Source: Candidatus Poribacteria bacterium
Lineage (GTDB): Bacteria > Poribacteria > WGA-4E > WGA-3G
DNA: 64,000 nucleotides
Assembly (NCBI GenBank): GCA_965242965.1
Contig: OZ251518.1
Span: 608,001-672,000 of the forward strand
Reading direction: 5' to 3'
Shown: piece by piece, positions 45,188 to 64,000 of the stretch
Numbering within the stretch: the stretch's first letter is position 1
Layout of the letters: every line of letters starts with the position of its first letter
The notes under the pieces: model-generated
Database searches by the model: none
What the model saw: only the letters and a program-made list of their open reading frames with translations
What the model was told of the DNA's origin: nothing
Position numbers and translations under genes: made by a program

Positions 45188-45257
45188 ATTATTCTCCTTG
45201 TGTGCCGCCGTGGGCACGATAGTACCGTGGTCTTCCGCTGCGCGTAGCCTCGCGAGG

Positions 45258-45557
45258 GACAGGCCCTCGCGCTACGGTGCTGCGAAGCGGTAGGAGAGCC
45301 CTCCCGGTCTCGATGCATCGGTTTCCAGGCCCTCGCGCTACGGTGATGCGAGCCAGCTGCGAAACTCACCTGCTGCGCGTTTTTGGCTTTGCGACAGACA
45401 GGCCCTCGCGCTACGGTGCTGCGAAGCGGTAGGAGAGCCCTCCCGGTCTCGATGCATCGGTTTCCAGGCCCTCGCGCTACGGTGATGCGAGCCAGCTGCG
45501 AAACTCACCTGCTGCGCGTTTTTGGCTTTGCGACAGACAGGCCCTCGCGCTACGGTA
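45258..45557. repeat. 139-bp tandem duplication of REP-derived sequence
   Basis: GACAGGCCCTCGCGCTACGGT at 45258, 45397, 45536. Confidence 0.9.
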
Positions 45558-45567
45558 TAATCGGGTA

Positions 45568-46602: not shown

Positions 46603-46606
46603 CGCC

Positions 46607-47857: not shown

Positions 47858-47945
47858 AGTTTTTCGTATCCTGTAAGGGAGGATTTCCATATCCTCCTGT
47901 CTTCTCTTGTGGCGGCCAGGTATAGACATCCGCCTTGACAAGCGT

Positions 47946-48863: not shown

Positions 48864-48890
48864 GTAAACTGATTTATCCTGTCGTTTCTG

Positions 48891-49505
48891 TTAGGTGCGC
48901 CGCGTGCTATTCTTGCGAAGGAGTTGCGCCATGTAATCCTTCGCGGCATCTGTCGTTAATTCGCCGTTGAGGATGGGCTTCACCTCAAATTCTGCTAACC
49001 GCACCGTTGGATTGAGTCCGTGCATTGGGGGCAGCCAATCCCGAAACGTATCAAAAAATGCCCGTTGCGCTGCGCGCCCATTTTCATAAGGAAAGTCCGC
49101 TGTCGGGCGGCGGAACCGCGCCGTTCCTTTCGCTAGTGCCGCTGCATGATGTTGCCGGCAAAACCGCCGATACGTCTCCAATTCATACGCGAGAGGCACA
49201 TCTGCCGTATAAAACCGCAACGTTTGTTCCCGATAGTGCGTGAAGTGTTGCAATTCGTCAAACTCAAAGATGAAGTGGTAAGGTGCCGGAAAATAGGCAT
49301 CGGGAATCAGGTATCCGTCTGCCTTCGCCGTTGTGCCTTCCCAATCGCCTTCTAGTTCGGCATAGAGTGCCATGATGTCAACGTAAGCGTCGCCGAAGTG
49401 TTCGGGCTGCGGTTTGTTGCGGAGCCATTCAAATTGCGCGCGTCGCTCTGCGGGTATTCCCAAAACTTGTTCGACGATGGCGATGATACCGACTTCTAGG
49501 CGCAT
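48891..49505 (-). CDS. Hypothetical protein, possible PD-(D/E)xK/Vsr-like nuclease
   Basis: LIPDAYF...IFEFDELQHF. Confidence 0.55.
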   Translation of the reverse strand: MRLEVGIIAIVEQVLGIPAERRAQFEWLRNKPQPEHFGDAYVDIMALYAELEGDWEGTTAKADGYLIPDAYFPAPYHFIFEFDELQHFTHYREQTLRFYTADVPLAYELETYRRFCRQHHAAALAKGTARFRRPTADFPYENGRAAQRAFFDTFRDWLPPMHGLNPTVRLAEFEVKPILNGELTTDAAKDYMAQLLRKNSTRRT

Positions 49506-49560
49506 TTTTCCCTCTAAAGAGGTGCGCGCTTGGAACGCGCGTTTACCGACAATAAGGGTG

Positions 49561-50367
49561 CTACACCGGTGCGATGTCTAGGTTTTTCAGTGCCTCACCG
49601 GTAGTTGAGCCGATTAAGCTCGCCAAATAGTCCCTGTCGCGTTGCAACGCCTCCAACTTGTCGTCACCGTGGAGGAACTCCACCTCAAGGTAGCCGGCGT
49701 ATCCTGCATTGCTGAGAATTTCAACGATGCGCGCGTAATCCACGACACCCTCTGCGATAGGGCACGCTTTCCCCTGTTCGTCAAAATTTTGCGCGTGCAC
49801 ATTGACAATGTGCTGCACGAGTTGTTGCGCGGCGGTGTGCGGCTCATCGGCATCTGTCCGCGCCAGCGGCTGATAGTAGGTTCGGAGAGATGGCACGTTC
49901 ACTCCTTCGATTACCTCCAAGATAGTCGCGACGCTATCGGTGAGGTTGTTGTTGTGCATCTCCAGTCCGAGTTTCATACTGCGGAAATTCGCCCACTGCG
50001 CCATGCTGACGAGTCGGAAGAGAATCAACCTTTTGTCCGCGGGCGCAATAGATTTAGACGGGCCACCGCCAGACCAGATTCTCACCAAGTCTGTGCCGAG
50101 TTCCTTCGCGATTTCAAACGCCTCTTCAAAATGCTTCTGATAGAGCGGCATCATAGGGTTGACGTAGGAGCCGAACGCCGAGATAGCCAAGCCTCGGCGG
50201 TGCGCGGTATCCCTGATGTTTCTGATGTAAGCCGCGTCGTAGTCCGCGGGTATATGCGGCGGCTTGCCCCAGATTTCGATGCCGTGAAACCCGTAATCCG
50301 CCGCGATGTCTATTACCTCTTCCAGCGGTTTTTCTTGAAACGCGATAGTGCATAAGCCGATTTTCAT
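49561..50367 (-). CDS. Sugar phosphate isomerase/epimerase (xylose isomerase-like TIM barrel)
   Basis: GFHGIEIW, LEMH, VHAQ, GYAGYLEVE. Confidence 0.85.
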   Translation of the reverse strand: MKIGLCTIAFQEKPLEEVIDIAADYGFHGIEIWGKPPHIPADYDAAYIRNIRDTAHRRGLAISAFGSYVNPMMPLYQKHFEEAFEIAKELGTDLVRIWSGGGPSKSIAPADKRLILFRLVSMAQWANFRSMKLGLEMHNNNLTDSVATILEVIEGVNVPSLRTYYQPLARTDADEPHTAAQQLVQHIVNVHAQNFDEQGKACPIAEGVVDYARIVEILSNAGYAGYLEVEFLHGDDKLEALQRDRDYLASLIGSTTGEALKNLDIAPV

Positions 50368-50459
50368 TGCGTTGTTCTCCCCGACTTTGTCTATTTATAC
50401 AAATAGGATACCACAAAAACAAAAAAATTGCAAGAAAAGTTTTTATTTTTTCTCTATTC

Positions 50460-50488
50460 TTGACATTAATGCACAGATACGTTATTAT
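50460..50488 (+). promoter_or_regulatory. sigma70-like promoter upstream of modABC
   Basis: TTGACA-17-TATTAT. Confidence 0.5.
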
Positions 50489-50575
50489 TTCCTCACATTC
50501 CGGTAGGCGGGTGCTCCTACTGGGAAACGGAATCGTTTTTGACAACAACGATTTATGAAACACCTTCCGTGAATT

Positions 50576-50871
50576 GAGAGTGTTTCATAAATCGTTCAAC
50601 GTGGCGGGGACAGGCCCCGCGCTACCGTGAAAAAAACGCCGCCCCTTCACGTAGGGCGAGGGTCCTCGGATACCACACGCGCATGCGAGCGGGTTTCCCT
50701 CTCCATGCGTTTTGGTGTCAGACCGCGTCACCCCTGTAGGTCAAGATCGCCTGATCTTGACTCGTTCGGGAGCGGGCGCTCCCGAACTACAGAGGTGGGG
50801 CCGAGGCCTGCCGGTATTCGCCTGCCCGCCAAGGCAGGATAAATACCGAAACGGAATTATGAAACACCCTC
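50576..50871. mobile_element. MITE-like element, complete (296 bp), carrying REP modules
   Basis: TIRs GAGAGTGTTTCATAA / TTATGAAACACCCTC. Confidence 0.78.
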
Positions 50872-50897
50872 ACTGACATTGTTCTGGATTTCAGGAG

Positions 50898-51659
50898 ATG
50901 AGCGTGCGTCAAAGGATTCAATTTGCACAAATAGCGTTAATCTGCTGCCTTTTGCTGTGCCTCGGGCTTTTCGGATGTGCACAAGAGGCGGAACTCACCG
51001 TTTTCGGGGCGATGAGTTTAACCGATGCACTCACCGAAATCGGCGAGGAGTTTACTGAGACGCATGACGTTAAAGTCTATTTTAGTTTTGCCGCGTCGGC
51101 AACGCTACAACGTCAACTTGAAAAAGGCGCGTCGGCAGATGTCTTTATCTCGGCAAGCCCAAAGCAGGTGGACATGCTCGCCGAACGGGATATGGTTTTA
51201 ACAGAGAGCCGCTACGATATGCTAACCAATCGGTTAGTGTTGGTAGCGCATACCTCTTCGCCGCTAAAGAATCTGACGAGTGATGGCATCTCACGAATTG
51301 CAATTGGCCAGCCGGAAATCGTGCCTGCCGGCACTTACGCAAAAGAGGCGTTGATAACCTTAGACATCTGGGACGCGCTCCAGCCGAAACTCATCTACGG
51401 CGTTGATGTCCGCGCCACCCTCGCTTATATCGCTGCCGGCAACGTTGATGTCGCGATTGTCTATCAGACTGATGCAACCCTGCGTCGCGATGTCAAGGTG
51501 CTTTACCAATTCCCGGATGAAACGCATGCGCCGATTGTTTACCCGGCTGTCATCATGAAGGGGAGCCGACAAAAGCGGCACGCGCAACGGTTTATTGACT
51601 ACCTGAAATCTGTCCGCGCCACCCAAATTTTTAAGAGGCACGGGTTCACGCGTCTATAA
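50898..51659 (+). CDS. modA: Molybdate ABC transporter substrate-binding lipoprotein
   Basis: AMSLTDAL, FAASATL, DVFISA, VPAGTYA, IVYQTDA. Confidence 0.92.
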   Translation: MSVRQRIQFAQIALICCLLLCLGLFGCAQEAELTVFGAMSLTDALTEIGEEFTETHDVKVYFSFAASATLQRQLEKGASADVFISASPKQVDMLAERDMVLTESRYDMLTNRLVLVAHTSSPLKNLTSDGISRIAIGQPEIVPAGTYAKEALITLDIWDALQPKLIYGVDVRATLAYIAAGNVDVAIVYQTDATLRRDVKVLYQFPDETHAPIVYPAVIMKGSRQKRHAQRFIDYLKSVRATQIFKRHGFTRL

Positions 51660-51669
51660 TGGAAATGCA

Positions 51670-52338
51670 ATGAGGATAACCGCCGCAGAAATTACGGCAC
51701 TCACCTTAACAATAAAGGTTGCGTTGCTGAGTCTCATCGTCATGTTTCCGCCTGGGCTTTTTGTTGGATGGCTCCTTGCAAAACGAACGTTCCCCGGGAG
51801 GACGCTTCTCAACACGTGCGTCATGCTTCCCCTCGTGCTGCCGCCGGTGGTGAGCGGGTATCTGCTCTTAATGTTGTTGAGCAAACACGGACTTGTCGGC
51901 GGGTTTCTCTTCAAGACTTTCGGGATAGAGCTGGTCTTCACAGAATTCGCGGTTGTTATCGCGCTGTCGGTTATCTCTTTTCCGCTTCTGGTGCGCGGCA
52001 TCATGACAGGCATGTCAGCCGTGCCAGAGAGACTTGAAAACGTCGCGCGAACGCTGGGCGCGTCGCCGATGAGAGTCTTTTTCACGGTGACCTTACCGCT
52101 TGCCGCGCGCGGTATCGTCGGCGGTGTCATCCTCGGTTTCTCCAAGAGCCTCGGCGAATTCGGCGCGACTATCATGGTGGCAGGCAACATTCCCGGCAAA
52201 ACCCAGACGATGGCACTCGCTATTTTCAACGCGGTGCAACTCGGCCGCGATGCCTCTGTCTATCGGTTGGTGTTTATTTCGACTGTCGTCGCCTTTGTCG
52301 CGCTATGGCTGGCGGAACGCTCACTCGCCAGAACGTAA
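51670..52338 (+). CDS. modB: Molybdate ABC transporter permease
   Basis: LPLVLPPVVSGY, SLGEFGATIMVAGNIPGKTQT. Confidence 0.93.
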   Translation: MRITAAEITALTLTIKVALLSLIVMFPPGLFVGWLLAKRTFPGRTLLNTCVMLPLVLPPVVSGYLLLMLLSKHGLVGGFLFKTFGIELVFTEFAVVIALSVISFPLLVRGIMTGMSAVPERLENVARTLGASPMRVFFTVTLPLAARGIVGGVILGFSKSLGEFGATIMVAGNIPGKTQTMALAIFNAVQLGRDASVYRLVFISTVVAFVALWLAERSLART

Positions 52339-52376
52339 ACAGGGATGTCTCTATTCGTCCGTTCCAAAAGAGAAAA

Positions 52377-53471
52377 ATGATCCGTCTCAATTTCCGCAAA
52401 CGCCTCGGCAATTTCACGCTAAGTCTTGATTGCACGCTCGCCCAAAAGGTTACGGCATTTCTCGGCGAATCCGGTAGCGGCAAAAGCACTCTCCTCAACT
52501 GCATCAGCGGCATTCTCACCCCGGACGAAGGCGAACTCGCCTTCGGCGATGAAGTGCTGGACGATGCGAAAGCACGTATCCATCAGCCGCCAGAGAAGCG
52601 CAGATTCGGATGCGTGTTCCAGGAGGGAAACCTGTTTCCGCATCTCACCGTTGAACAGAATATCCGTTATGGTGAACCGTCTCGGAAGCGCGAGGCGCGT
52701 TTAAAAAACGCGCCCACGGATCTGGGTAAAGTCATTGATACGCTTGAAATCGGGATGTTGCTGAAACGATACCCACACCAACTTTCAGGCGGCCAACGTC
52801 AACGCGTCGCGATTGCACGCGCCCTCGCGATGGAGCCGCGGCTGTTGCTCATGGACGAACCCCTTGCATCGCTGGACACCGGTTTAAAAAACCGCATCTT
52901 GCCCTACCTCCGCCACGTGAAAGAGGCGTTTGACGTGCCGATGCTCTATGTCACACACGCAATTTCAGAGGCCATGGCGATTGCTGACGAAGCATTCCTC
53001 CTCGCCGATGGAGAAATTACCGCCAGCGGCGAACCGCATCAACTGCTCACTGCGCCAGCCGCGCTCCCTATTGCGCAATTAACAGGCGTAGAAAATATGT
53101 TATCCTTACCGATTGCCTTTTCAGACAAAGCGAGTGGGATAACGGCATTGCAAATCGGGGGACAGCGGATTGTAGTGCCTTACGCAGACCAGGGGCAAGG
53201 CATGAGTCAAGACGTGCCGATTGCCATCCGTGCAGAAGACATTATTATCTCGCTGGAACCGAATCTCCCTATCAGCGCGCGCAACATTTTAAAAGGGATT
53301 ATTCGCGAAATTCGCCGAGTTGGCGATAGAACGCTTTTGACTATTGACGTTGAGGGACATCCGCTGTCCGTGAAAATCACGCACGATGCGCGCGAACAAC
53401 TTCAGTTGCGTGAGGGGATGTCATGTTATTGTGTTATCAAGGCGAATGCGATTAATCTTCTGTGGAATTGA
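52377..53471 (+). CDS. modC: Molybdate ABC transporter ATP-binding protein with TOBE domains
   Basis: GESGSGKST, LSGGQRQR, LLMDEP, SARNIL. Confidence 0.92.
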   Translation: MIRLNFRKRLGNFTLSLDCTLAQKVTAFLGESGSGKSTLLNCISGILTPDEGELAFGDEVLDDAKARIHQPPEKRRFGCVFQEGNLFPHLTVEQNIRYGEPSRKREARLKNAPTDLGKVIDTLEIGMLLKRYPHQLSGGQRQRVAIARALAMEPRLLLMDEPLASLDTGLKNRILPYLRHVKEAFDVPMLYVTHAISEAMAIADEAFLLADGEITASGEPHQLLTAPAALPIAQLTGVENMLSLPIAFSDKASGITALQIGGQRIVVPYADQGQGMSQDVPIAIRAEDIIISLEPNLPISARNILKGIIREIRRVGDRTLLTIDVEGHPLSVKITHDAREQLQLREGMSCYCVIKANAINLLWN

Positions 53472-53489
53472 GTGTTGAGATTGAGAATG

Positions 53490-54123
53490 CATCGAGACTC
53501 CCTGGTCTCGATGTTCCCGTAGCGCGGGGGCCCTCGGAGGTTCCATACGCGCATCCGAGCGGGTTTCCCCCGCGCGCGCCATCGTCACGATGCTGTCTTA
53601 GGTCCTTTAGGACCTTAATGTCTATAGCAGCACGTGTCGTACCGTTTTCAAGGTCCTTTAGGTCCTTAATAAAAACACGCGCGGATCTGGCAAAAGCTAT
53701 TAAGGACCTAAAGGACCTTAGGGTGCGCTGCGATGCAGGATGCTATAGACATTAAGGTCTTACAGACCTTAGGCATGGCGAGGAACAGGCCCTCACCCTA
53801 CGGGTGAACGGGAACGATTTCTTAGTTGTTCCCGTAGCGCGGGGGCCTGTCCCCCGCGAGTTCCATCGTCCCGATGTGTGCTTCCCCTCTGTAGTTTGTG
53901 ATCGCCTGATCACAAACAGGTCAGGATCAGGCGATCCTGACCTACAGGGGGGGGATGCGATCTGACAGTAAGACGCATGGCGAGGGACAGGCCCTCGCCC
54001 TACGGTGCAAGCGGCAATCAAGCATGACGAGGGACAGGCCCTCGCCCTACGTGAAGGGGAGGCGTTTTTGCACCGGAGCAGGGGCCTGTCCCTGCGACGT
54101 TGAGCGAGTTATGAAACACTCTC
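53490..54123. repeat. REP-like cluster with one ~170-bp AGGTCC unit and a MITE terminal repeat
   Basis: AGGTCC unit 53600-53769; TTATGAAACACTCTC at 54109-54123. Confidence 0.88.
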
Positions 54124-54126
54124 AAG

Positions 54127-54765
54127 TTACCCGTGAAGTCTGTCCCAAAATTCATCCACCTGTCTACGAAGTTCCTCCAGCGTCCCCTCATTTTCGATGA
54201 CAACGTCCGCGTAATTTATTTTTTCTGCCAGCGGCATTTGTGCATCGATGCGCGCTTCCACCTCGCTTTCAGTAAGCGTTCTGCCTTGCGCACGACTCCG
54301 TTCCAGCGTCCGGCGCAACTGCGTTTCCGATGAAGCAGTCACGACAACAATCAGATCGACGGTGTCATAAGCCCCTGCCTCAATCAGGAGTGGTGCGTCA
54401 AGCAAGACGACGGTACTCGGGTCTGCCGTAACAATCTGCCTTGCGCGCGCGCGGGAACGTTTGATAATCAACGGATGCAGAATGGCATTTAACCGCTCGC
54501 GCGCGGCTTTATCGGCAAAGACAATCGTGCCCAGTTTTTTTCGGCTGACATCGCCGGATACGTCAAGGATATCCTCTCCAAACGCTTTGACGAGTTCGTC
54601 GATAATAGGACTATCGGCTTTCAGGAGTTGATGTCCAATTTCGTCAGCATTAATAGGAATCGCGCCTTTTTCTGCGAGGAGTTCGGATACCGTGGTCTTC
54701 CCGCATGCGATGCCGCCCGTAATTCCGATGATGGTGCCGCGGTCGGCGGGTTTTTGTGTGTTCAT
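54127..54765 (-). CDS. coaE: Dephospho-CoA kinase
   Basis: GITGGIACGKTT, LNAILHP, DAPLLIEAG, RIDAQMP. Confidence 0.93.
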   Translation of the reverse strand: MNTQKPADRGTIIGITGGIACGKTTVSELLAEKGAIPINADEIGHQLLKADSPIIDELVKAFGEDILDVSGDVSRKKLGTIVFADKAARERLNAILHPLIIKRSRARARQIVTADPSTVVLLDAPLLIEAGAYDTVDLIVVVTASSETQLRRTLERSRAQGRTLTESEVEARIDAQMPLAEKINYADVVIENEGTLEELRRQVDEFWDRLHG

Positions 54766-54872
54766 GCTAAGGGGGTTTTCTCCTACCGTAGCGCGGGGGC
54801 CTGTCCCCCGCGATCGTTGCATGGCGAGGGGAACCCGCTCGCATGCGCGTGTGGCATGCGAGGGCCCAAGCC

Positions 54873-55838
54873 CTACGAATTGAGAGCGTCTTTCATCAAC
54901 GCATCATAATCGGCATTCACCAACTCAATTCCGTAAAACGCCAGCCGCTCCATGATTATCCGGATGGCAGGGAGGTTATTATCTACCAGAATCGATGAGC
55001 GTCCGTGCAATGCCGCCGCTTCGCCGAGGGTACCGCTACCGGCAAAGAAATCCAACAACGTGTCGCCCGGCGACGAATGCACCTTAACAATGCGATTTAA
55101 GATACCGAGCGGTTTCTGCGTCGGATACCCCGTCTTTTCACCGCTGCTTGTGCCGACGATGGTGTGCCACCAAACGTCTGTCGGCGTTTTGCCGCGCGCC
55201 GCCTTCTCCTTGCCGACGAGCCCCGGTGCCATATACGGAATCCTGTCCATCTCGTCAAAATTGAAGGTGTAATGCTTCGGGTTTTTGGCATACCACAAGA
55301 TGTTATCGTGCTTTGCGGGCCAGCGCGATTTCGGGCGGCCGCCGTAATCATAAGCCCAAATAATCTCGTTCATGAACCCCGCGCGCCCGAAGATTTCATC
55401 CAGCATCACCTTACAGTAATGCACTTCGCGATAATCGATATGCAGAAAAAAACTGCCGTGCGGATGCAACACCCGATATGCCTCTTCAAAACGCGGACGC
55501 AAAAACTGCAAGTAGGCATCGGAACTCTCGAATTTATCGGAATAATGAATTCGGGACAGGGATGTCCCTCCTACCGATTCATCGGAATTCTCGAATTTAT
55601 CTGAGTCATGAGGCCCGGACAGGGATGTCCCTCCTACCGGTTTAATGGTGCGGTAAGTCTTGCCTTGGAAACCGACTCTGTCGCCTTGCGCATCCTGAAA
55701 CACCTGAATTTCGTCGCGCTGTTGGATTTTGCCGGTGTTGAAAGGCGGATCGATGTAAACGGCATTAACGCTCTCATCTGCGACATGTTCCCGCAAGATC
55801 TTCAGGTTATCGCCGTAATAGAGTTGATGGGTAGACAT
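54873..55838 (-). CDS. Site-specific N4/N6 DNA methyltransferase (beta class), orphan
   Basis: YIDPPFNTG, YPTQKP, LDFFAGSGT; AAGGAG RBS before ATG 55838. Confidence 0.9.
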   Translation of the reverse strand: MSTHQLYYGDNLKILREHVADESVNAVYIDPPFNTGKIQQRDEIQVFQDAQGDRVGFQGKTYRTIKPVGGTSLSGPHDSDKFENSDESVGGTSLSRIHYSDKFESSDAYLQFLRPRFEEAYRVLHPHGSFFLHIDYREVHYCKVMLDEIFGRAGFMNEIIWAYDYGGRPKSRWPAKHDNILWYAKNPKHYTFNFDEMDRIPYMAPGLVGKEKAARGKTPTDVWWHTIVGTSSGEKTGYPTQKPLGILNRIVKVHSSPGDTLLDFFAGSGTLGEAAALHGRSSILVDNNLPAIRIIMERLAFYGIELVNADYDALMKDALNS

Positions 55839-56065
55839 AGTTCTCCTTCTGTTTTGAGATACGTTCATTATACAGAAATTCCTATATTCATGCAAGCGCG
55901 GTGCCACGAAAAAAACGCTTGACATCATTATCCAATTTTTGTTACAATAATTAACGCGACGACATAGAGGAGAGTTACGCAAATGTAGGTTGCGCTGTTT
56001 GAAACCGCGCCTACGGAGCTCGATTTGCGTAAATTCCACGAAAAAAAATCAAAGGAGCATCAAAT

Positions 56066-57097
56066 ATGGCGCAAGAAATTATCAGAGTCGGCATCATTGG
56101 GGCCGGCGGGAATACCACCTCACGGCACATTCCAGGGTTACAAGCAATCGATGGCGTTGAAATTGTCGGAGTTTGCAATCGCAGTCAGGAATCTTCGCAG
56201 CGCGTGGCAGACAAGTTCGGCATTCCCAAAACATACCGAAATTGGCAGGATGCCATCGCCGATGCGGATACAAACGCGATTGTCATCGGCACCTGGCCCT
56301 ATATGCACTGCCGCGCGACGGTGGCGGCACTCGCCGCAGATAAACACGTCATGTGCGAGGCGCGGATGGCGATGAACGCCCGCGAAGCGTATACGATGCG
56401 CGATGTCGCACGCCAGAAAACAGCATGCATAGCGCAGATTGTCCCCTCGCCGATGACGCTGCGGGTGGACAACACGATAAAACGGCTCATTGCCGAAGGA
56501 TACCTCGGTGAAGTGCTTGCCGTTGATGTGCGCGCAGGCGGCGCATTCCTTGAACGCGAAGCACCGCTCACGTGGCGACAAGACTTTGACTTCAGCGGGC
56601 TCAACATCATGAGCATGGGCATCTGGTATGAGGCACTCATGCGCTGGGTAGGCGAAGCCACGCGGATTATGGCGATGGGCAAAACGTTCGTCAAAATGCG
56701 TCCCGATGCCGAGGGCACCATGCGCGCCGTGCGGATTCCGGAACATATTGATGTCATCGGAGAACTGGGATGCGGCGCGCAACTCCACGTCCAAGTCTCG
56801 AATATCGCCGGATTGGCGGGCGCGCCGGAAGTCTTTCTCTTTGGAAGTAACGGCACGTTGCGTTTTTCTGGGAACCGACTCTACGGTGGACAAAAAGGCG
56901 ATGCCGAACTCAGCGAGATTGACATCCCTGACGCAGAAGCAGGCGCGTGGCGCGTCGAAGAAGAATTTGTAAACGCCATCCGCGGCACCGAAATCATCAC
57001 GCACACCGATTTTGAGACCGGGGTGAAGTATATGGAATTCACGGAGGCTGTCACGCGGAGCATGCAGTGCGGCGCGGCGATTCCGTTACCGCTGTAA
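56066..57097 (+). CDS. Gfo/Idh/MocA oxidoreductase
   Basis: VGIIGAGG, HVMCEARMA; AAGGAG RBS. Confidence 0.9.
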   Translation: MAQEIIRVGIIGAGGNTTSRHIPGLQAIDGVEIVGVCNRSQESSQRVADKFGIPKTYRNWQDAIADADTNAIVIGTWPYMHCRATVAALAADKHVMCEARMAMNAREAYTMRDVARQKTACIAQIVPSPMTLRVDNTIKRLIAEGYLGEVLAVDVRAGGAFLEREAPLTWRQDFDFSGLNIMSMGIWYEALMRWVGEATRIMAMGKTFVKMRPDAEGTMRAVRIPEHIDVIGELGCGAQLHVQVSNIAGLAGAPEVFLFGSNGTLRFSGNRLYGGQKGDAELSEIDIPDAEAGAWRVEEEFVNAIRGTEIITHTDFETGVKYMEFTEAVTRSMQCGAAIPLPL

Positions 57098-57108
57098 AAG
57101 GAGGAACA

Positions 57109-57681
57109 TTGACACTAGGAAAACTCTTTAACCTTTGCCAAGACATTGAACTCCGGCAAGCCAAACTGTACGCCTCCCTCTCGTTACTTTTGGGAGGAGT
57201 TGATGAACGAATCGCGCGATTTTGGGAACGGATGAGCACCGAAGAGTGGCAACACTACATCCTCGTCGATTTCGGACGTTCCTTATGCGCTGAGACTTTC
57301 GGCACCGATTTGCAGGTGATGGAACTGCCGGATGTAGCGCGCCGATTGCCAGCGAATATCGGGAAGACAATCCAGCAGATTACCGAGGCGTTGGATGTGC
57401 ATGAGCGGAAGGTGAATAGCGGACAGATCACGCTGGACGAGGCGTTCGCTATTGCCGTCGCTATTGAAGGGAGCGAGGCGGATACCCTCTATATGTATCT
57501 GCTCGCCATCATCAGAAAGGCGATTCATCAGAGTGACCAGCCGTATTTGATGAGCCGTGTCGTGCAGGTTGAAAAAGACATGGTATCGCATGTAGACGGC
57601 CTCGTGCAGGCGACGCAGCGGTTCTCGAAAGATGCTAGTCTGATCCGTAGGGCGCATCGGCTCAAAGCGCATCATAACTAA
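57109..57681 (+). CDS. Ferritin-like/rubrerythrin-like protein
   Basis: E...LY...FWERMSTEEWQH...AVAIEGSE...H; AGGAGG RBS before TTG. Confidence 0.6.
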   Translation: MTLGKLFNLCQDIELRQAKLYASLSLLLGGVDERIARFWERMSTEEWQHYILVDFGRSLCAETFGTDLQVMELPDVARRLPANIGKTIQQITEALDVHERKVNSGQITLDEAFAIAVAIEGSEADTLYMYLLAIIRKAIHQSDQPYLMSRVVQVEKDMVSHVDGLVQATQRFSKDASLIRRAHRLKAHHN

Positions 57682-57685
57682 GGGG

Positions 57686-57906
57686 GGTAGACGTAGGCGA
57701 GACCTCCTGGTCTCGATGTCCCCGTAGCGCGGGGGCCTGTCCCCCGCGAGCGTTGCGAGAAATGCGGCTGACACCGTAGCGCGGGGGCCTGTCCCCCGCG
57801 ATCGTTGCATGGCGAGGGACAGGCCCCCGCCCTACGTTGAAGAGGCCGTTTTTTCCGTGGCGCGGGGGCTGTCACCGCGCCGTTGAACAAGTTATGAAAC
57901 ACCCTC
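57686..57906. repeat. REP-like cluster ending in a MITE terminal repeat
   Basis: GTAG palindromes; TTATGAAACACCCTC at 57892-57906. Confidence 0.85.
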
Positions 57907-58027
57907 CGATAAGAAGGCATTTGAGCAGGCGATTTCTCTATTTCTTCTCCGATTTGCGTTGCCTTTGAGGACAAGGTTTTGGCGGAAGCAAATTCATGCC
58001 ATCGCAAGACCTGGCAGGTCCCTCAAA

Positions 58028-58116
58028 AACGTAGAAACCGACAACGCCGATTTCGGAGAGATGGAGAGACATGATTGCACAGCAACCGTTATCAAACGCC
58101 TTGCGAACGACGAAAA
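58028..58116 (+). repeat. Copy of the ~90-bp element also present at 63626-63720 (-) and 63898-63990 (+)
   Basis: ATCAAACGCCTTGCGAACGACGAAAA matches 63965-63990 at 24/26; shared 9-bp-stem hairpin. Confidence 0.75.
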
Positions 58117-58223
58117 AATCGTTCTGCATCGGACATTTTTTGTTGCGAAATGTTAGGGGTTGTGGTATTCTATCTGAAGGCGTTAGGTGCCTCAAACGTA
58201 ACTCACACCACGAGGGAATTCAG

Positions 58224-58517
58224 ATGAACACACCCACCGAAGTTGAAGTCCGTTTCACGCTCGCGATTTCCGAAGGTATCCTGCGACACAAAGGGGCTGC
58301 GGAGCAGAAAGCAAAGACAGCGTATGTGCTGGAACTGCTCCGACAGGGCGACATTAGCGCGGGCCGCGCCGCGACCCTGCTCAGCATTTCGCGATGGGAA
58401 CTCTCCGACTTGATGTCTGAATCAGGCATCTCCCCTTTTGATGACAGTCTCACCGCCGAAACGCTCGCTTCGGAAGTGGAGACAGCCTTGGAAGTGTTGG
58501 ATGGCCGGAAACGATGA
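58224..58517 (+). CDS. UPF0175-family putative antitoxin
   Basis: LLRQGDISAGRAATLLSISRWEL; overlaps the PIN gene at ATGA. Confidence 0.8.
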   Translation: MNTPTEVEVRFTLAISEGILRHKGAAEQKAKTAYVLELLRQGDISAGRAATLLSISRWELSDLMSESGISPFDDSLTAETLASEVETALEVLDGRKR

Positions 58518-59014
58518 TTGTTTCAAACAGCACTCCATTGATTGAACTCTCGAAAATTCGGCGATTGGAATTGCTGCGGGATGTCTATGGCTCTCTCGTC
58601 ATTCCAAAGGCGGTTTATACCGAAGTCGTCATTAATGGGGAAGGAAAACCGGGTGCCGCCGAAGTCAAAGAGGCACCGTGGATTTACCCACACGCCGTGA
58701 CACATCGCAGTAAGGTTCAAAGCCTTTACGCCCGTCCCTCACTAGATTTAGGCGAATGTGAGGCGATAGTGCTAGCTGAAGAAATATCTGCAGCCCAGGT
58801 GATTCTCGATGACCGCGTTGCGCGGGAAGTCGCCGTATCTCGGGGGCTGCCTGTGATTGGCACGTTCGGCGTGTTGCTTGTCGCCAAAGCCGAAGGTATC
58901 ATTCCCACCGTGGAACCGATACTCACTGCGCTTCGGGCGCACGGGACACGCATCAGCCAACCCCTCTATCGTCTGATTCTTACTGCCGCCGGAGAATCAG
59001 ACGACGCGGCGTGA
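58514..59014 (+). CDS. DUF3368 PIN-domain (VapC-like) toxin
   Basis: IVSNSTPLI, IPKAVYTE, LDLGECEAIVLA, ILDDRVAR, GTFGVL. Confidence 0.88.
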   Translation: MIVSNSTPLIELSKIRRLELLRDVYGSLVIPKAVYTEVVINGEGKPGAAEVKEAPWIYPHAVTHRSKVQSLYARPSLDLGECEAIVLAEEISAAQVILDDRVAREVAVSRGLPVIGTFGVLLVAKAEGIIPTVEPILTALRAHGTRISQPLYRLILTAAGESDDAA

Positions 59015-59147
59015 TTCGCTCCTGTTGCAGAACTGCAGAGAGGTGATGTTGCACGTTTGCATGCAAAGTCCCCGGCGATGCGAAAGAAAGGAAGCGGCTC
59101 GCCGGCAACAGTGTCGGCGAGCCGCTTTTGTTGGACAGCTTTTACGC

Positions 59148-60737
59148 CTACCGCCGTGGGTAGAACACATCGCGGTCGCGGGCAAAAAACCGCCAATCTA
59201 ACGACAGGCACCATTGCAAGAACGCCTCTGCGATGGGTGTCGTCGCGTCTGTGCCGAACCACACCTCGGCCAATTCCCGTGCTGTGAACGGCCGCGTGTA
59301 CCCGATTTGAAGGAGAAGGGCAGCCAACTCCGCCAGAATCCTGTCATTGGCGAGATGTCTCCCGCGTGAAATCCCGGGGTGGTTCCTGACAGGATACGCA
59401 CGGCCATTTTCGGGGCGTGTCACACCCACGTTTGGAACCGCGCTGCGCACGGATGCGGCTAACGCTTCTCGCGCCGCATCATCCCCGTGGACTAGAAACA
59501 ACTTGCCGGGTTGCACTTGCTGAACCAACCTCGTCAGTTCCTGGTTGTCCGCGTGTGCAGAGAGTGAGTAAGATGTCACTTTGCACGCAACGTTCACGGA
59601 CGTTCCATCGTCCAATGTCCACACCCGTTCTCGTGCCAGTGCGCGGCCAGGAGTCCCTTCTGCCTGATAGCCCGTGATTGCAATCAGGTTTTTCGCATCT
59701 TGGACGAGGTGTTCGGCATAATAACTCGACATGCCGCCTACCAGCATCCCAGACGATGCTACGATGCAACACGGCTCTCCCGACAGAACCCTATCGCTTT
59801 CTTCACGTGAGGAGACCTGTTGTATCTTCTCCGAATAAAAGAGATCTTCACCGCGTTCAACGTTGCGGCGCAGGGACGACGTGAGTTCAGCGGAAAAGTC
59901 CGAGTACACCTGATTGACTTTCCGCACCATCCCATCAACATATACGGGGAACTCCGGCACCCGGTTGCGCTGCATCGCGCGCTTTAAAACGAGAAGGACT
60001 TCTTGGGAACGCCCTACGGCAAAGGTAGGAATAAGCACTTTGCCGCCCTTGGCAATCGTTTCGGCTACATCCTGCGCGAGCGCGCGTTCTTGCGCCTCGC
60101 GCGTCTCGTGCCGGCGGTTGCCATAGGTTGACTCCATCACCATCACATCAGGTTTGCACCACGTTGGCACATTGAGGTTGGGCAACGTCCGCTGATTGGC
60201 AACGGATACATCGCCTGTCATCAAGAGGCTTTCTTGCTTTCCCTCAATGTAAATCATCGCCGCACCAAGAATGTGACCGGCGGGAATCCATGTCGCCCTC
60301 AAGGCACCGCCACAAATCGGGACGGGTAGTAGCCAGGGCACATCTGTCACCATGCGTTCCAGGGCCGCGGGTACCGCTTCGGGAGGATACAGGGGTTCCG
60401 GGCTCTGCTGTTTTCCGCCGCGACGTTGCCGTTTCACAGCATCTTCCAGCAAGACGCGTGTAATCGCTTTTGTTGCCGGTGTGCAATACGTAGGCACCCC
60501 GGCAGGCAGCATGCACTCCAATGCTGGCAACGCGCCCGTGTGATCGGTGTGTGCGTGCGTCAGGAGAACTGCATCCGGCATGCCAAGCCCCTCTAACGCT
60601 GTCAAATCGGGCAACGGTGAAATCCGACCGGGGCCCATCCGGATACCTACATCCACGAGGATGTGAGTGCCTTCAATTTCAATTGACGTGCTGGAGGCAC
60701 CAACTTCGTTGGCACCACCGCAAAAAGTCATCATCAT
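59148..60737 (-). CDS. Metallo-beta-lactamase/beta-CASP nuclease with a short C-terminal wHTH-like tail
   Basis: GGANEVGAS, THAHTDH, AGHILG, TGD, MESTYG, FAVGRSQE, SAHAD, VHG. Confidence 0.9.
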   Translation of the reverse strand: MMMTFCGGANEVGASSTSIEIEGTHILVDVGIRMGPGRISPLPDLTALEGLGMPDAVLLTHAHTDHTGALPALECMLPAGVPTYCTPATKAITRVLLEDAVKRQRRGGKQQSPEPLYPPEAVPAALERMVTDVPWLLPVPICGGALRATWIPAGHILGAAMIYIEGKQESLLMTGDVSVANQRTLPNLNVPTWCKPDVMVMESTYGNRRHETREAQERALAQDVAETIAKGGKVLIPTFAVGRSQEVLLVLKRAMQRNRVPEFPVYVDGMVRKVNQVYSDFSAELTSSLRRNVERGEDLFYSEKIQQVSSREESDRVLSGEPCCIVASSGMLVGGMSSYYAEHLVQDAKNLIAITGYQAEGTPGRALARERVWTLDDGTSVNVACKVTSYSLSAHADNQELTRLVQQVQPGKLFLVHGDDAAREALAASVRSAVPNVGVTRPENGRAYPVRNHPGISRGRHLANDRILAELAALLLQIGYTRPFTARELAEVWFGTDATTPIAEAFLQWCLSLDWRFFARDRDVFYPRR

Positions 60738-60914
60738 TATGGTTTCCTCTCACGATTGACAACAGAACTCTCTTCTGTGTCGGATACGGATGTGCGCAAT
60801 CCCAAAGGAATCCGCGTGAGGCTATTGAGCCTCCAAGCGTTCAGCGCATCCACTCATAACAATAGCGGTAGGTATTACGCCGATAAAACCTACCGACGCA
60901 ATACCTAGCACCTT

Positions 60915-61076
60915 TTATTTACCCTTTCCGCCTTTGGCAGGGGCGTTAGTTCTTCCGCCACCAGAGGGCTTGCCGGTTTTGCTCGGCCAGCCGCCGGCTC
61001 CTCTGCCTCGGCCGCCTTTACCGCCGCTTTGGTGACTACTTCTCCCTCCACCGCGGTTACTTTGTGATTTCGCCAT
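60915..61076 (-). CDS. 53-aa Gly/Lys/Arg-rich micro-protein
   Basis: RBS AGGAGGTGAT (61081-61090) before ATG; 18 Gly, 12 K/R, no acidic residue. Confidence 0.7.
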   Translation of the reverse strand: MAKSQSNRGGGRSSHQSGGKGGRGRGAGGWPSKTGKPSGGGRTNAPAKGGKGK

Positions 61077-61605
61077 TTTTATCACCTCCTTCCTTGTAGG
61101 AATTCCTCGCCTCACCGGACCACAACGCTCTCCGATAGAAGCGATTGAACTGATGTTACCTGCGAAAGAACGCGTCATGGAAACCCGATGCCCGAAGGAT
61201 ACTGGGTACCACCCGCGATCTACGAAAGGCGACGCACCCGCAAATAAAATGTCGCGAGGTGTTTACTGTTACGCCCACAGAAAACGTGCGCGTGGAAACC
61301 CCTGCTAAAGCACGCTACCTTTCTTATATTGTTACCTATCCCTAGCAAAAACAAACCTTGAAACTTCGGCTTTGCAAGTGAAGTGCTCCATTTTACGGCA
61401 GCAGCAAAACTATATCCCATGAACATCCGATTGCCTCGGATACCAACCGTTAGGAGTCCCAACGCGGGAAACGTCAGGACCGGAAGAGCGGCAGACTGCC
61501 TCAAAGCAACGCAGTTGGTTTTTTTTGCACCACGGAGTAGGGTTTCTCAACGCTTTGTCTTCAGACTTTGTGAGAATTCCCTCTTCCAGAGTTGCATTGA
61601 TACTA

Positions 61606-61634
61606 ATTATATCACAAAAAATGGCAAATGTCAA
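61606..61634 (-). promoter_or_regulatory. Consensus sigma70 promoter with extended -10
   Basis: TTGACA-17-TATAAT, preceded by TGn. Confidence 0.75.
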
Positions 61635-61644
61635 ATTAAAATGA

Positions 61645-61686
61645 AAAAAAGTCGCCGCGGTTTGTATCGGTTACGCCGATACAAAA
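61645..61686 (-). terminator. Putative intrinsic terminator of the 585-aa gene
   Basis: 10-bp stem TTTGTATCGG/CCGATACAAA; T7 tract nearby on the minus strand. Confidence 0.5.
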
Positions 61687-61713
61687 GTGAAAGCGTCGGC
61701 CGGTGTCAACTTT

Positions 61714-63471
61714 CTACCACCGCCGATCTTCTTTATCGCGTGTCCGGTGCAACTCTTTTCGACGTGTGCGCATCGCACCGGCTTTATCGATGGGTATCTC
61801 AAGCGTTAAAAGATGTGCCTGCCGGAGCCACCAAAACGCCTCAAACAACGGACGGCGAGGCGACGCGCCCGTGTCGACATTGGCTTTGCGCCGGTCCAAC
61901 CGCCGAATCTGTTTGTGCGCCTTTTTCGCGACATCGCGGACGGTCGCGTCCGGATCCTTCTGGGAGAGCCAGAACAAGGTGCGATGGGCCCGTCCACCGG
62001 GATTCACGCGCAGTGCCGCCACTGCCTGCACATAACTCTGTCTCCATAGGCGGCGCGGTTCAACAAAATCGGTGTCGGTGTAAGTTGCCGTTTCTCGTTT
62101 CGTCCGGGTTTGGAGTCGACTGAGGCAGAACGTGGCGAATTCTTCGCGCAGGTCTCGCAAATGCGGGTCCCGCGCCAATTCGCGCTGCAAGTTCTGCGGA
62201 TACATGGAGATAGCAATCCAGTGTGGCACCACCGCGTAAGGATAAGGCGGTGGTTCGTCTCTACCGTATTCGGGCCACGCGCGCAGATCCGAGGTAACGG
62301 CTGGCTTTTTCATCTCGCTGAAGGCCAGTAATAACGGTTTCAGCCGCTGCCACGGTGGTGCCAACACTAGCAGAACGTAAAACGCCTTCTCATAAAAGTC
62401 ATGGACAGGTATGCCGGGAGAATCTTCCCTCTCAAAGCAAGCCGGTTCATCCCGCAAGAGCGAACGCAAGATGCCGATATGTCGCGAGGCACTCTGGACA
62501 AGCCTCCCTCTGAGTTCTTCAGAAAGTTCTGCTTCCAGCCCGCCCATGTGTCTCCCGTAAAGGATTCTGGCTAAGTGCCACCATGCTTTGAGCAAGGCAG
62601 AACGTCCGGGCTGCAATTCGGGCTGTTTCTCACTGAGCAACGCCAAAAATGGCATTAACTCGCGGGCAACAAGTTGCCATCCTTCGTTCAAGGCGGGTCC
62701 GGGGCCGAGTGCTTGACTCAAGGCGTAACCGATTGCATGGAGGAGCCCAAGGATTTTGTCCCCTAAATCGGGTTCTGGGACATTGGAAAAATCGGATAGC
62801 AACGTCTGCAGACGCACCGTATTACAACGTTCGGTGTTCGCTTGGAAACGCCATATTAACCAGAATTCCAGTTCGCCCGGGTCTTGGAAATCGTTGCTGC
62901 CCCAACTTTGGCGTTGGACGGGATTCAAGTGTCCCATGTCAACAATTTGGTTGAGCGGCACGCCTTCTGGAAAAATGAAGGGGAGCAACTGATCGAAATA
63001 GAAAACGCCGTTGTTGGTGTCCCTTATCTCAATGAGTTTGTGCACATTTGGGGCCGCTGTGCTGAAGTTGGCGTGCCGTTGGAATTCACCTACCCACGCC
63101 GGTATCTCTTGGGAGTCCTTCAGTTGGATGTTGGGTAAAAACCACGTATCGACTCTAGGGCCAAAGTCAAGCAGCTTGCTGAAGAGGAGGGCCAGGTGGG
63201 TTTGCCGGTCTGCCGCAACAGGCACCAGTTCTTTCAATGCTTTCAGGACAGTTTCAAGCCCCATCTCAAAGTCATCAAAATCGTCTTTGAACCGAGAGCT
63301 GTCCTCAGGGTTTCCAAAGCAGTCCGGGCGGAGAAAGAGGCGAACGAGCCAGCCCTGGTCTGCCGCGGAAAACCCCGCGGACTGAAGAGACTCTTTGACA
63401 GCGAAGACTTCCTCGGCAGAAGAATCTTCGGTTGGAAAAACGAGTGTTGCGGAGCGTTCAGTTTGGCTCAT
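61714..63471 (-). CDS. Hypothetical helical protein (585 aa) with a C-terminal HEAT-like motif
   Basis: Long ORF; AAGGA RBS; DPDATVRDVA motif; own promoter. Confidence 0.75.
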   Translation of the reverse strand: MSQTERSATLVFPTEDSSAEEVFAVKESLQSAGFSAADQGWLVRLFLRPDCFGNPEDSSRFKDDFDDFEMGLETVLKALKELVPVAADRQTHLALLFSKLLDFGPRVDTWFLPNIQLKDSQEIPAWVGEFQRHANFSTAAPNVHKLIEIRDTNNGVFYFDQLLPFIFPEGVPLNQIVDMGHLNPVQRQSWGSNDFQDPGELEFWLIWRFQANTERCNTVRLQTLLSDFSNVPEPDLGDKILGLLHAIGYALSQALGPGPALNEGWQLVARELMPFLALLSEKQPELQPGRSALLKAWWHLARILYGRHMGGLEAELSEELRGRLVQSASRHIGILRSLLRDEPACFEREDSPGIPVHDFYEKAFYVLLVLAPPWQRLKPLLLAFSEMKKPAVTSDLRAWPEYGRDEPPPYPYAVVPHWIAISMYPQNLQRELARDPHLRDLREEFATFCLSRLQTRTKRETATYTDTDFVEPRRLWRQSYVQAVAALRVNPGGRAHRTLFWLSQKDPDATVRDVAKKAHKQIRRLDRRKANVDTGASPRRPLFEAFWWLRQAHLLTLEIPIDKAGAMRTRRKELHRTRDKEDRRW

Positions 63472-63595
63472 GAAATGTTCCTTACTTCTTAACCGTCAGC
63501 AGTGGACGAGATGCGTCCGGGACCCAGTTGACGGGTTAGGGTTAACGGTTGACTTCGGGTGTGCGTTCCTGCGCCGATTCGCACAGCCATGATAA

Positions 63596-63624
63596 AGTAT
63601 ATCACAAAAAAGCGGCGATGTCAA
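63596..63624 (-). promoter_or_regulatory. Near-consensus sigma70 promoter
   Basis: TTGACA-17-TATACT with the same TTTTTTGTGA spacer end as the 61606 promoter. Confidence 0.65.
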
Positions 63625-63625
63625 T

Positions 63626-63990
63626 TTTTCGTTGTTCGCAAGGCGTTCGATTAGATGGGTTTGTAATTATAATCCCTCGGCGTAATCCGCAATCAACGTT
63701 GTTGATTGCTAGGGTTCTGGTGCTAATTTTTGTCATCGGCAAGTCTGCACGTAGGTGATTCTGCAGTTCTGCACTTTTTTTGTAACCACCACCGAAAAGA
63801 GCCGTTTTTATCCCCAAGATGCCCACGATGTATTTATGCACTTCTGCACTGATGCATTTCAGGGAATCTGCACATAAACCGTTACCTCTTGCTCCAATAA
63901 CGTAGATATCGACAACGTCGATATCGGATAAACGGAGAGAAACGTTGTTAAACGAGAAACCTTTATCGAACGCCTTGCGAACAACGAAAA
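63626..63990. repeat. 365-bp segment bounded by a perfect 26-bp inverted repeat
   Basis: TTTTCGTTGTTCGCAAGGCGTTCGAT (63626-51) / ATCGAACGCCTTGCGAACAACGAAAA (63965-90). Confidence 0.8.
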
Positions 63991-64000
63991 CGCGACTGAC

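Follow-up and report, generated by a model that had tools for sequence, protein, structure and literature searches.

A 64,000-nt stretch of a Poribacteria genome (Candidatus Poribacteria bacterium, contig OZ251518.1, positions 608,001 to 672,000 of the forward strand), here called the window, carries a cassette in which the gene of a 585-aa protein, named big, is followed by a promoter, a long leader, a small open reading frame (ORF), a structured spacer and the gene of a beta-CASP nuclease, all on the minus strand. By comparing the window with related loci, we found that big is the fixed component of a gene module behind which effector-type genes of three families are exchanged, and that the leaders of this module contain two conserved structured RNAs, R1 and R2, with strong covariation. 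Our reading, to which we give a rough probability of 0.55, is that the module acts against phages and that its exchangeable effectors are controlled by cis-acting RNAs; it would be a cluster of swappable cassettes with which sponge-associated bacteria probably fight viruses. An RNA-centred system had already been proposed in a preliminary description of the window, and the presence of two covarying structured RNAs in the region bears out this general idea, while several of its more specific parts had to be changed, as described below.

Constant partner and exchangeable cargo

The census of cargo genes covered 42 loci, namely the window and 41 related loci. The 585-aa protein had been listed, together with a PIN-like gene pair, among the neighbours of the nuclease; both are present, but the protein is an invariant component of the module and not a mere neighbour. 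The cargo genes behind big belong to a family of beta-CASP nucleases (25 loci), to the prokaryotic viperins, mostly accompanied by a kinase (14 loci), and to a family of B12-binding radical S-adenosylmethionine (SAM) enzymes (8 loci). The nuclease was the only cargo in 19 loci, viperin with or without kinase in 11 and the B12-radical-SAM enzyme in 5, while viperin, kinase and nuclease were found together in 3 loci and the B12-radical-SAM enzyme and the nuclease in 3 others; in one locus the contig ended before any cargo. The viperins matched the pVip models of PADLOC with E values of 1e-80 to 1e-116, the Tmk-like kinases matched VakA/PDC-M51B (1e-14 to 1e-27) and the B12-radical-SAM cargo matched PDC-M51A (1e-87).

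The type of cargo is not clustered on the tree of big. On a quick maximum-likelihood tree, 21 changes of label were counted as compared to 20.6 in shuffles, and values as low occurred in 148 of 200 shuffles. In fact, near-identical big genes are followed by different cargo, as in L036 and L039, with branch lengths of 0.04 and 0.026. The same kind of difference is seen between the window and its closest relative, whose nuclease is 83% identical to that of the window and where the order is big, promoter, R2, a relic ORF, R1, viperin, kinase, micro-ORF, the hairpin P0, R1 and nuclease. The viperin-kinase segment is missing from the window; a weak R1-like stretch remains, and this may be what is left of the leader of a viperin cassette since lost. 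The assembly over positions 58000-64000 was confirmed by DNA contigs from two runs. A contig joint connecting 58119 with 63961 was considered as a deletion allele and rejected, because its shorter side is only 29 nt long and lies inside a dispersed repeat.

The distribution of the module is patchy. Relatives of big at 41 loci were found in species-representative genomes, all of them Poribacteria-type metagenome-assembled genomes, some of which are recorded under other phyla. Within the phylum, big occurs in 31 of 176 genomes (27 of the 133 high-quality ones), which represent 6 of 31 genera. Within the genus of the window itself, the two other species gave no match to big. The flanks of the module are not shared, the largest cluster of flanking genes being present in 9 of the 42 loci. 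A search of viral contigs for relatives of big found none. A profile search showed that the family reaches well beyond the phylum, with 470 cluster representatives at E<=1e-3; the 10 clusters that were looked up had no label beyond "hypothetical protein".

We also analyzed a sample of 27 distant metagenome loci, in which big is 27-45% identical to the query. A known cargo gene lies directly downstream in 14 of them (viperin in 7, beta-CASP nuclease in 4, B12-radical-SAM enzyme in 2, and this enzyme together with the nuclease in 1), on the strand of big and, in L088 and L089, overlapping it. Since the same cargo families are found directly downstream of big in such distant loci, the link between big and its cargo is old and not a local accident. 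This bears on an alternative that we consider unlikely, in which big would be functionally unlinked to the cargo and would simply border an integration or recombination hotspot for defence genes, with the leader units as recombination substrates or cassette boundaries. The differences in cargo order and content between very close relatives of big (L036, L039), the repetition of leader units within L036, L056, L027, L037 and L040 and the dispersed repeats that flank the module in the window would agree with a hotspot. However, the adjacency, common strand and occasional overlap of big and the same three cargo families persist in distant lineages without R1 and R2, the flanks of big itself are not conserved, and the compensatory changes in R1 keep RNA helices, which a DNA recombination site would not need.

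Two further observations concern cargo regions. In three distant loci (L081, L086 and L093) a gene for a 111-aa DUF4258 protein comes after that of the big homologue. It is followed by the B12-radical-SAM gene in L086 and L093, and L081 ends shortly past it. In L056, the nuclease gene is split by a reverse-strand gene of 375 aa, which is transposase-like as read from its sequence.

The big protein matched no family of Pfam, PADLOC or NCBIfam. Its AlphaFold model (pLDDT 87.8, pTM 0.83) is all helical and, on the basis of this model, big is an all-alpha solenoid of the ARM/HEAT-like type. Foldseek retrieved ARM/HEAT repeats and karyopherins, with a best E value of 4e-3 and TM at most 0.28; a search of the Atlas gave only HEAT-like leads (0.88-0.90), and a profile search of PDB gave only chance-level rows. 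The prediction of a complex between big and the micro-protein scored 0.00, a value that is informative in neither direction. Two big units fused in tandem were observed in the metagenome proteins P0010 / P0163 (1195 aa).

Leader RNAs and small ORFs

The 177-nt spacer between the micro-ORF and the nuclease gene had been described as structured from the sequence alone, and its computed fold agrees with this description (Table 1). The signal comes mostly from P0, a hairpin that begins 2 nt past the stop codon of the micro-ORF. In a comparison of two genera, identity was about 94% for the spacer as compared to 83% for the nucleases. P0-like hairpins of at least 8 pairs, frequently with the core GGUUGAYC...GRUCAACC, are present upstream of 47 of the 48 R1 copies described below.

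Spacers that follow the micro-ORF share the R1 motif regardless of the cargo, with P3 absent in some copies. Since RNAalifold recovered only 3 pairs from the raw MAFFT alignment A3, the structure of R1 was named by hand and tested by pair counting. In this seed alignment of 26 sequences, 83% of the cells are paired and 15 of 23 pairs changed on both sides; none of 500 shuffles reached the observed level, and slid controls gave 30-46% of paired cells. On 48 model-aligned copies the paired cells were 87.6% (the alignments A4 and A8 were fitted to the models). The covariance model (CM) of R1 gave 48 matches at E<=1, of which 44, at E<=3.4e-4, were distributed over the window and 40 of the 41 related loci. 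All 44 are on the strand of big, and they include 15 loci and 3 second copies beyond the seed. A whole-genome search showed that R1 is single copy in the window's genome at E<=1, and the minimum free energy (MFE) fold of the window copy reproduces the three-way junction.

Searches of Rfam 15 gave nothing overlapping the leader, the micro-ORF or the spacer in the window from 57000 to 64000, where the three hits at E<=1 all lie elsewhere and are far below the gathering scores; five related loci totalling 68.7 kb gave no match. R1 and R2 are thus RNA motifs new to Rfam.

The position of R1 is informative as to its mode of action. R1 always lies on the sense strand, and its 3' end is located 22-99 nt, mostly 35-61 nt, before the start codon of the cargo. 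This short distance on the coding strand fits a cis-acting mRNA leader and not a guide RNA, one of the possibilities envisaged in the preliminary description. The co-occurrence of leader, micro-ORF and nuclease homologues on which that description depended was found, 22 beta-CASP orthologues having an R1 leader and 20 of these a small ORF upstream. The arrangement is however not specific for the nuclease, since 13 copies of the unit of small ORF, hairpin and R1 precede viperin genes and 8 precede B12-radical-SAM genes, often in loci without any nuclease. For this reason we consider it very improbable that the nuclease is guided or gated in trans within a ribonucleoprotein (RNP) containing leader or spacer RNA together with the basic micro-protein, in the manner of crRNA-Cas14 or of a regulatory RNP. 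The micro-ORF type is moreover independent of the cargo, no repeat array is present in 45000-64000, and the score of the nuclease on the Cas14 model, although it amounts to 283 bits and would be in line with an RNP, is far under the 800-bit cut-off. An RNP would also be compatible with the basic and disordered character of the micro-protein, with a spacer more conserved than the nuclease, and with the winged-helix-like tail of the latter, whose weak fold neighbours include the RNA-hairpin binders SelB and Egalitarian.

Leader units are repeated in L036, L056, L027, L037 and L040, and in some loci each of the two cargo genes has a complete set of small ORF, hairpin and R1 of its own.

The 53-aa micro-ORF of the window, reported earlier as having a very strong ribosome-binding site (RBS), does have a GGAGG 8 nt before its ATG, and homologues of the same type, called A, are present in 27 of 44 R1 leaders. 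The other leaders contain small ORFs of type B (8) or type C (2) or none (7). All types share the RBS context and an N-terminal MAKS, and the type is independent of the cargo. In type A the pairwise differences per codon position are 0.30, 0.24 and 0.54 (0.19, 0.20 and 0.54 in the conserved motif); this pattern indicates that the type-A micro-ORF is a real gene under purifying selection as a protein. Only 9 relatives of type A, none of them named, were found among 5.8 billion proteins. Type B has the motif DNRANQLNPNNDAYW and replaces the Gly-rich micro-protein at the same position (at L053:7778-7948 and in 9 other loci); it has 94 relatives at E<=0.01, some of them outside the phylum, and any label is "hypothetical protein". 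Type C, found between big and R1 in L029 and L035, corresponds to type A with an inserted segment (MTPKAAARIQ...AARAQRAA); an in-frame stop then comes ahead of the usual C-terminal motif. For the micro-proteins, searches of Pfam and NCBIfam remained empty even at E 10, and PDB gave no match either. A short ORF with a hairpin 2 nt past its stop recalls leader-peptide transcription attenuation; no U-tract follows the full hairpin, the sole terminator-like call nearby lies inside that hairpin, and the amino-acid sequence of the ORF is itself under selection.

Upstream of the micro-ORF, the promoter of the preliminary description was recovered as TTGACA and TATAAT, 17 nt apart, with the TG of an extended -10 element. 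About the leader behind it (61605-61077, about 530 nt), the description was correct in that no ORF conserved among the relatives occurs there; what it had missed is that the leader contains R2, a 19-codon relic and the weak R1-like stretch. The leader of the window is 88% identical over 238 nt to the stretch downstream of big in the closest relative; in many other loci, it is the sequence immediately before big that resembles it, with 70-74% identity. The aligned leaders show, in this order, a conserved promoter, a conserved RNA of about 125-165 nt (R2) and the RBS with the initial codons of big. The possibility that the leader is a lost coding gene was rejected, because its similarity is only to non-coding leaders and to the first codons of big.

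The architecture of R2, also named by hand, consists of a long-range helix, three hairpins, a candidate pseudoknot (AUCCUA/UAGGAU) and a helix opposing the Shine-Dalgarno sequence (anti-SD helix). In alignment A6 (20 sequences) 90% of the cells are paired and 21 of 37 pairs changed on both sides; again, the observed level was reached by none of 500 shuffles, and slid controls were at most 51% paired. The anti-SD helix taken separately is 77% paired, with double changes in 4 of its 6 pairs. On 44 model-aligned copies, 94.6% of the cells are paired, and many of the unpaired nucleotides are invariant. The CM of R2 matched 41 of 42 sources, the exception being a contig that starts 43 nt before big. 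In 37 of 40 loci, all except L034, L042 and the closest relative, no more than about 210 nt separate the end of R2 from the big gene downstream. From these alignments R2 is, in the other loci, the 5' untranslated region (UTR) of big, with a predicted pairing to its Shine-Dalgarno sequence. In the window and in the closest relative, instead, the block of promoter and R2 sits after big and is predicted to head the transcript of the cargo. R2 is single copy in the window's genome and was detected in 29 of 151 genomes of the phylum, each time beside big. Such a one-to-one and exclusive link is easier to reconcile with a dedicated sensor, or with a site where a protein binds for autoregulation, than with a general metabolite riboswitch. 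From viral contigs, 80 loci matching a loose R2 pattern were retrieved; none of them was hit by the CM, and these were taken as chance matches.

Some additional features of these regions were noted. Extra copies of R2 are found at L038 5623-5731, L042 4733-4841 and L066 9904-10043. In L066 the second copy is followed by a 132-aa piece of another big gene and by a 497-aa protein without Pfam family. A promoter scan of 58900-63700 gave 5 promoter-like sites as compared to a mean of 2.4 in shuffles. The promoter before R2 (61605-61637) and the site before big (63595-63627) are 79% identical over 33 nt, and the first 37 nt of the promoter region have matches of 88-89% at two other places in the genome. 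Right after the stop codon of big, a hairpin UUUUGUAUCGG-CGUAA-CCGAUACAAA is located at 61661-61686 (minus strand), with a T-run 10 nt further on; further copies of its 14-nt arm, TTACGCCGATAAAA, are present at 60875 and 61269.

The beta-CASP nuclease and the surroundings of the module

The members of the beta-CASP family are marked by the metallo-beta-lactamase (MBL) motifs 1-4 (D, HxHxDH, H and D) and by the motifs A (D/E), B (H) and C (H). The nuclease of the window has the residues of all of them and, as stated in the preliminary description, its metal motifs are intact: D29, H61, H63, D65, H66, H155, D176, E202, H395 and H417 are invariant among 18 aligned homologues. The Pfam scores are 100.6 bits for Beta-Casp, 49.6 for RMMBL and 38.0 for Lactamase_B, above the respective cut-offs of 27.7, 21.6 and 22.7. 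The closest solved relatives in PDB are aCPSF1/FttA (3e-59), CPSF73, IntS11, Cas14 (3e-49) and TTHA0252, and they are RNA endonucleases. RNase J (TIGR00649) matched with 28.9 bits, over the N-terminal 94 residues only and against a cut-off of 400. By these family models, the nuclease therefore belongs to the beta-CASP family and is not an aCPSF1, a Cas14 or an RNase J by the cut-offs of those families.

The last 88 residues (about 442-529; nt 59151-59414) form a C-terminal domain, modelled with a pLDDT of 81 and an H-H-H-beta-beta topology. Its Foldseek rows are weak (E 0.13-0.5) and nearly all of them are winged-helix domains, so that, according to the model, the nuclease seems to carry an extra winged-helix-like domain. 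A comparison of this domain with the viperin and B12-radical-SAM cargo gave no match, and a shared docking domain was rejected.

The character of the nuclease might also suggest a non-immune operon for stress or for RNA or nucleotide metabolism, in which a solenoid scaffold would work with a CPSF73-like RNase (as symplekin does with CPSF73 and IntS4 with IntS11), together with stress micro-proteins and metabolite riboswitches. The closest solved relatives are indeed enzymes of mRNA 3'-end processing, big is a HEAT/ARM-like solenoid by its model, and the micro-proteins are hydrophilin-like, type B having 94 relatives of which some are outside the phylum. We hold this explanation to be improbable, considering the patchy distribution (31 of 176 genomes), the varying genomic contexts with free exchange of cargo and the match of two of the three cargo families to PADLOC defence models; in addition, R2 occurs only beside big, whereas metabolite riboswitches usually control several gene families.

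The features of the window are collected in Table 1.

Table 1. Positions of the elements of the module and of nearby features in the window.
Feature	Positions	Strand	Basis or remarks
UPF0175 antitoxin-like and DUF3368 PIN-like genes	58224..59014	+	Pfam; convergent with nuclease
GC-rich inverted repeat, 16-nt arms	59092..59127		arms 94% complementary; between the convergent nuclease and PIN genes
beta-CASP metallo-nuclease, CPSF73/aCPSF1 type, 529 aa	59148..60737	-	Pfam, PDB relatives, invariant residues
Spacer, 177 nt	60738..60914	-	-67.8 kcal/mol, z -4.7, 0 of 200 shuffles as good
Hairpin GACACAGAA...UUCUGUUGUC, then nuclease Shine-Dalgarno GAGAGGA	60745..60781	-	spacer fold, sequence read
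R1, three-way junction of about 76 nt (P1, P1b, hairpins P2 and P3)	60779..60855	-	CM R1 56.2 bits, E 6e-16
P0, 21-pair hairpin	60864..60912	-	-28.8 kcal/mol, z -6.4
Micro-ORF, 53 aa, Gly/Lys/Arg-rich, type A	60915..61076	-	GGAGG Shine-Dalgarno; conserved GWPSKTGKPSGGGRxNAP
Weak R1-like stretch	61165..61243	-	CM R1 13.2 bits, E 0.9; own fold z -0.8
19-codon relic ORF	61332..61391	-	homologous to RBS and first codons of big in other loci
R2, pseudoknotted RNA (candidate pseudoknot)	61405..61525	-	CM R2 104.6 bits, E 1.5e-18; directly behind promoter
sigma-70-type promoter, extended -10	61606..61634	-	12 of 12 consensus positions and TG; homologue before R2 in other loci
big, 585 aa	61714..63471	-	ORF; constant component of module
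Promoter-like site upstream of big, TTGACA-17-TATACT and TG	63596..63624	-	11 of 12 consensus positions

The inverted repeat downstream of the nuclease gene is probably a terminator. The UPF0175/DUF3368 pair is not conserved beside the module in other loci. Two dispersed repeat families have no copy in 59148-61634, in agreement with the earlier remark that this part is free of REPs. A dispersed repeat of 26-36 nt, ATCRAACGCCTTGCGAACRACGAAAA, brackets the module from the antitoxin/PIN-like pair to big (58081-58116, 63626-63651 and 63955-63990); two of the copies (63626-63651 and 63965-63990), separated by 313 nt, are perfect inverted repeats of each other over 26 nt and resemble a miniature inverted-repeat transposable element (MITE), and the genome contains 53 copies at <=3 mismatches as compared to 0 for the reversed control. 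An N6/N4 DNA methylase (PF01555, 2e-45) is encoded at 54873-56039 on the minus strand, 3 kb from the module, and its gene holds a 63-nt tandem duplication (55517-55639, 2 copies, 86% matches). Upstream of big, past the end of the window (L097 546-866), a 106-aa ORF resembles a fragment of a ParA/Soj-type ATPase, with a KGGAGKTT P-loop as read from the sequence, and is followed by a 245-aa protein rich in Glu, Arg and Ala.

Proposed mechanism and comparison with known systems

In the module, big is the constant part in every locus, followed by one or two cargo genes, most of which are preceded by a leader unit made of a small hydrophilic ORF with predicted strong translation, P0 and R1. In the mechanism that we propose, R2 and R1 would be cis-acting RNA switches, with a small molecule, big or the micro-protein as the binding partner, and would set the amount of regulator and effector via the translation or stability of the mRNAs of big and of the cargo. 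The nuclease would cut RNA once expressed or activated, and big may contact the cargo proteins. A more far-reaching version, which we regard as rather doubtful, would see in R2 and R1 two new classes of RNA switches that keep an antiviral regulator and its interchangeable effectors translationally silent until infection acts as the trigger; the alpha-solenoid, perhaps with the small basic proteins, would be the RNA-binding sensor, and the repeated leader units would allow cassettes to be swapped by recombination.

Several results weigh against the reading as an RNA-controlled anti-phage module. PADLOC-DB 2.0, searched at E<=0.1, contains no family matching the nuclease, the micro-protein or big. 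The fold comparison of big across VIA gave Z values of at most 8.9, inside the background of helical repeats, and its matches are thus generic. The single-sequence folds of the window are unremarkable, with a z of -1.4 for R1 and of -1.0 for R2, whose MFE structure is without helices 1 and 2, so that the case for the RNAs rests on covariation; this was counted on related, non-independent sequences, and the structures were drawn from the same sequences, which favours them in the slid controls. Folding gave no support to the idea that the R1 region masks the Shine-Dalgarno sequence of the cargo, which had a mean unpaired probability of 0.33 (0.34 in shuffles; Wilcoxon p 0.51, n=48). What follows R2 in the window is the 19-codon relic and not a gene, and the role of R2 here is uncertain. 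Seven of the 44 R1 leaders are without a small ORF. Finally, searches of the distant loci L074-L096 detected neither R1 nor R2, and the RNA layer may therefore be lineage-specific.

If the anti-phage reading is correct, an unnamed and widespread protein family (470 cluster representatives) would be the conserved partner of prokaryotic viperins and of two other types of effector, which would indicate an undescribed multi-effector defence family, and two covariation-supported RNA motifs absent from Rfam would be tied to immune genes. To our knowledge, the mechanism by which viperin-type effectors are restrained in bacteria is not known; the R1 and R2 leaders would make their control directly testable by reporters and probing. 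The exchange of cargo behind a fixed partner with a repeated leader unit would be a compact natural example of effector modularity, and the small ORFs of types A, B and C would be candidates for functional micro-proteins.

With CPSF73, aCPSF1 (FttA) and IntS11 the nuclease shares the MBL, beta-CASP and RMMBL parts and all metal and beta-CASP residues (3e-59 to 5e-51). It lacks the N-terminal KH domains of aCPSF1: its match to TIGR03675 covers model positions 177-624, with 305.2 bits as compared to a cut-off of 580, and the PDB alignments start at chain residues 182-191. It also differs from these enzymes in the additional C-terminal winged-helix-like domain suggested by its model, and in being encoded by an accessory gene beside big and not by a core gene.

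In type VII CRISPR-Cas, the beta-CASP effector Cas14 is reported to be recruited to a Cas5-Cas7-crRNA complex (PMC13069675). Cas14 is likewise a beta-CASP nuclease used in defence and has a C-terminal extension past the catalytic core, and the solved Cas14 matched the nuclease of the window at 3e-49. Nevertheless, the nuclease reached 283.2 bits on the Cas14 model NF045584, far below its cut-off of 800 bits, no repeat array is present in 58900-61800 or 45000-64000, and the RNA elements of the window are leaders of mRNAs, not repeat-spacer units. The genes around the nuclease are big, the micro-ORF, the toxin-antitoxin-type pair, the methylase and housekeeping genes; no Cas-like Pfam family turned up among the neighbour genes, a search in which no dedicated Cas7/Cas5 models were used.

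The prokaryotic viperin (pVip) systems, reportedly described by Bernheim and colleagues in 2021, correspond to the cargo behind big in 14 of the 42 loci, mostly with the Tmk-like kinase; the window itself either lost viperin or never had it. We know of no conserved alpha-solenoid partner, leader ORF or structured 5' leader in known pVip systems. The PADLOC candidate PDC-M51 consists of a B12-binding radical SAM protein (A) and a kinase (B), and homologues of PDC-M51A are the cargo in 8 loci, here placed behind big and an R1 leader. Our literature search found no paper mentioning PDC-M51, and none linking viperins, beta-CASP nucleases or PDC-M51 to a solenoid partner, to leader ORFs or to RNA leaders.

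As compared to riboswitches and protein-binding mRNA leaders, such as those of ribosomal proteins, R1 and R2 are likewise conserved and covarying 5' UTR structures on the sense strand, with the provision that the structures were derived from related sequences. R2 in particular has invariant unpaired nucleotides, a candidate pseudoknot and an anti-SD helix. They differ from riboswitches in being tied to a single gene module and in matching nothing in Rfam 15 and, in the case of R1, in that Shine-Dalgarno occlusion is not supported.

A last comparison concerns DSR2, whose C-terminal alpha-solenoid domain is reported to recognise a phage tail tube protein (PMC11850899). Although big is a separate protein, with no detectable sequence relation or specific fold relation to DSR2, its model is likewise all-alpha and HEAT/ARM-like and its gene lies beside those of the effectors; we can only conjecture that big might act as a sensor, in the way of the DSR2-type solenoids.

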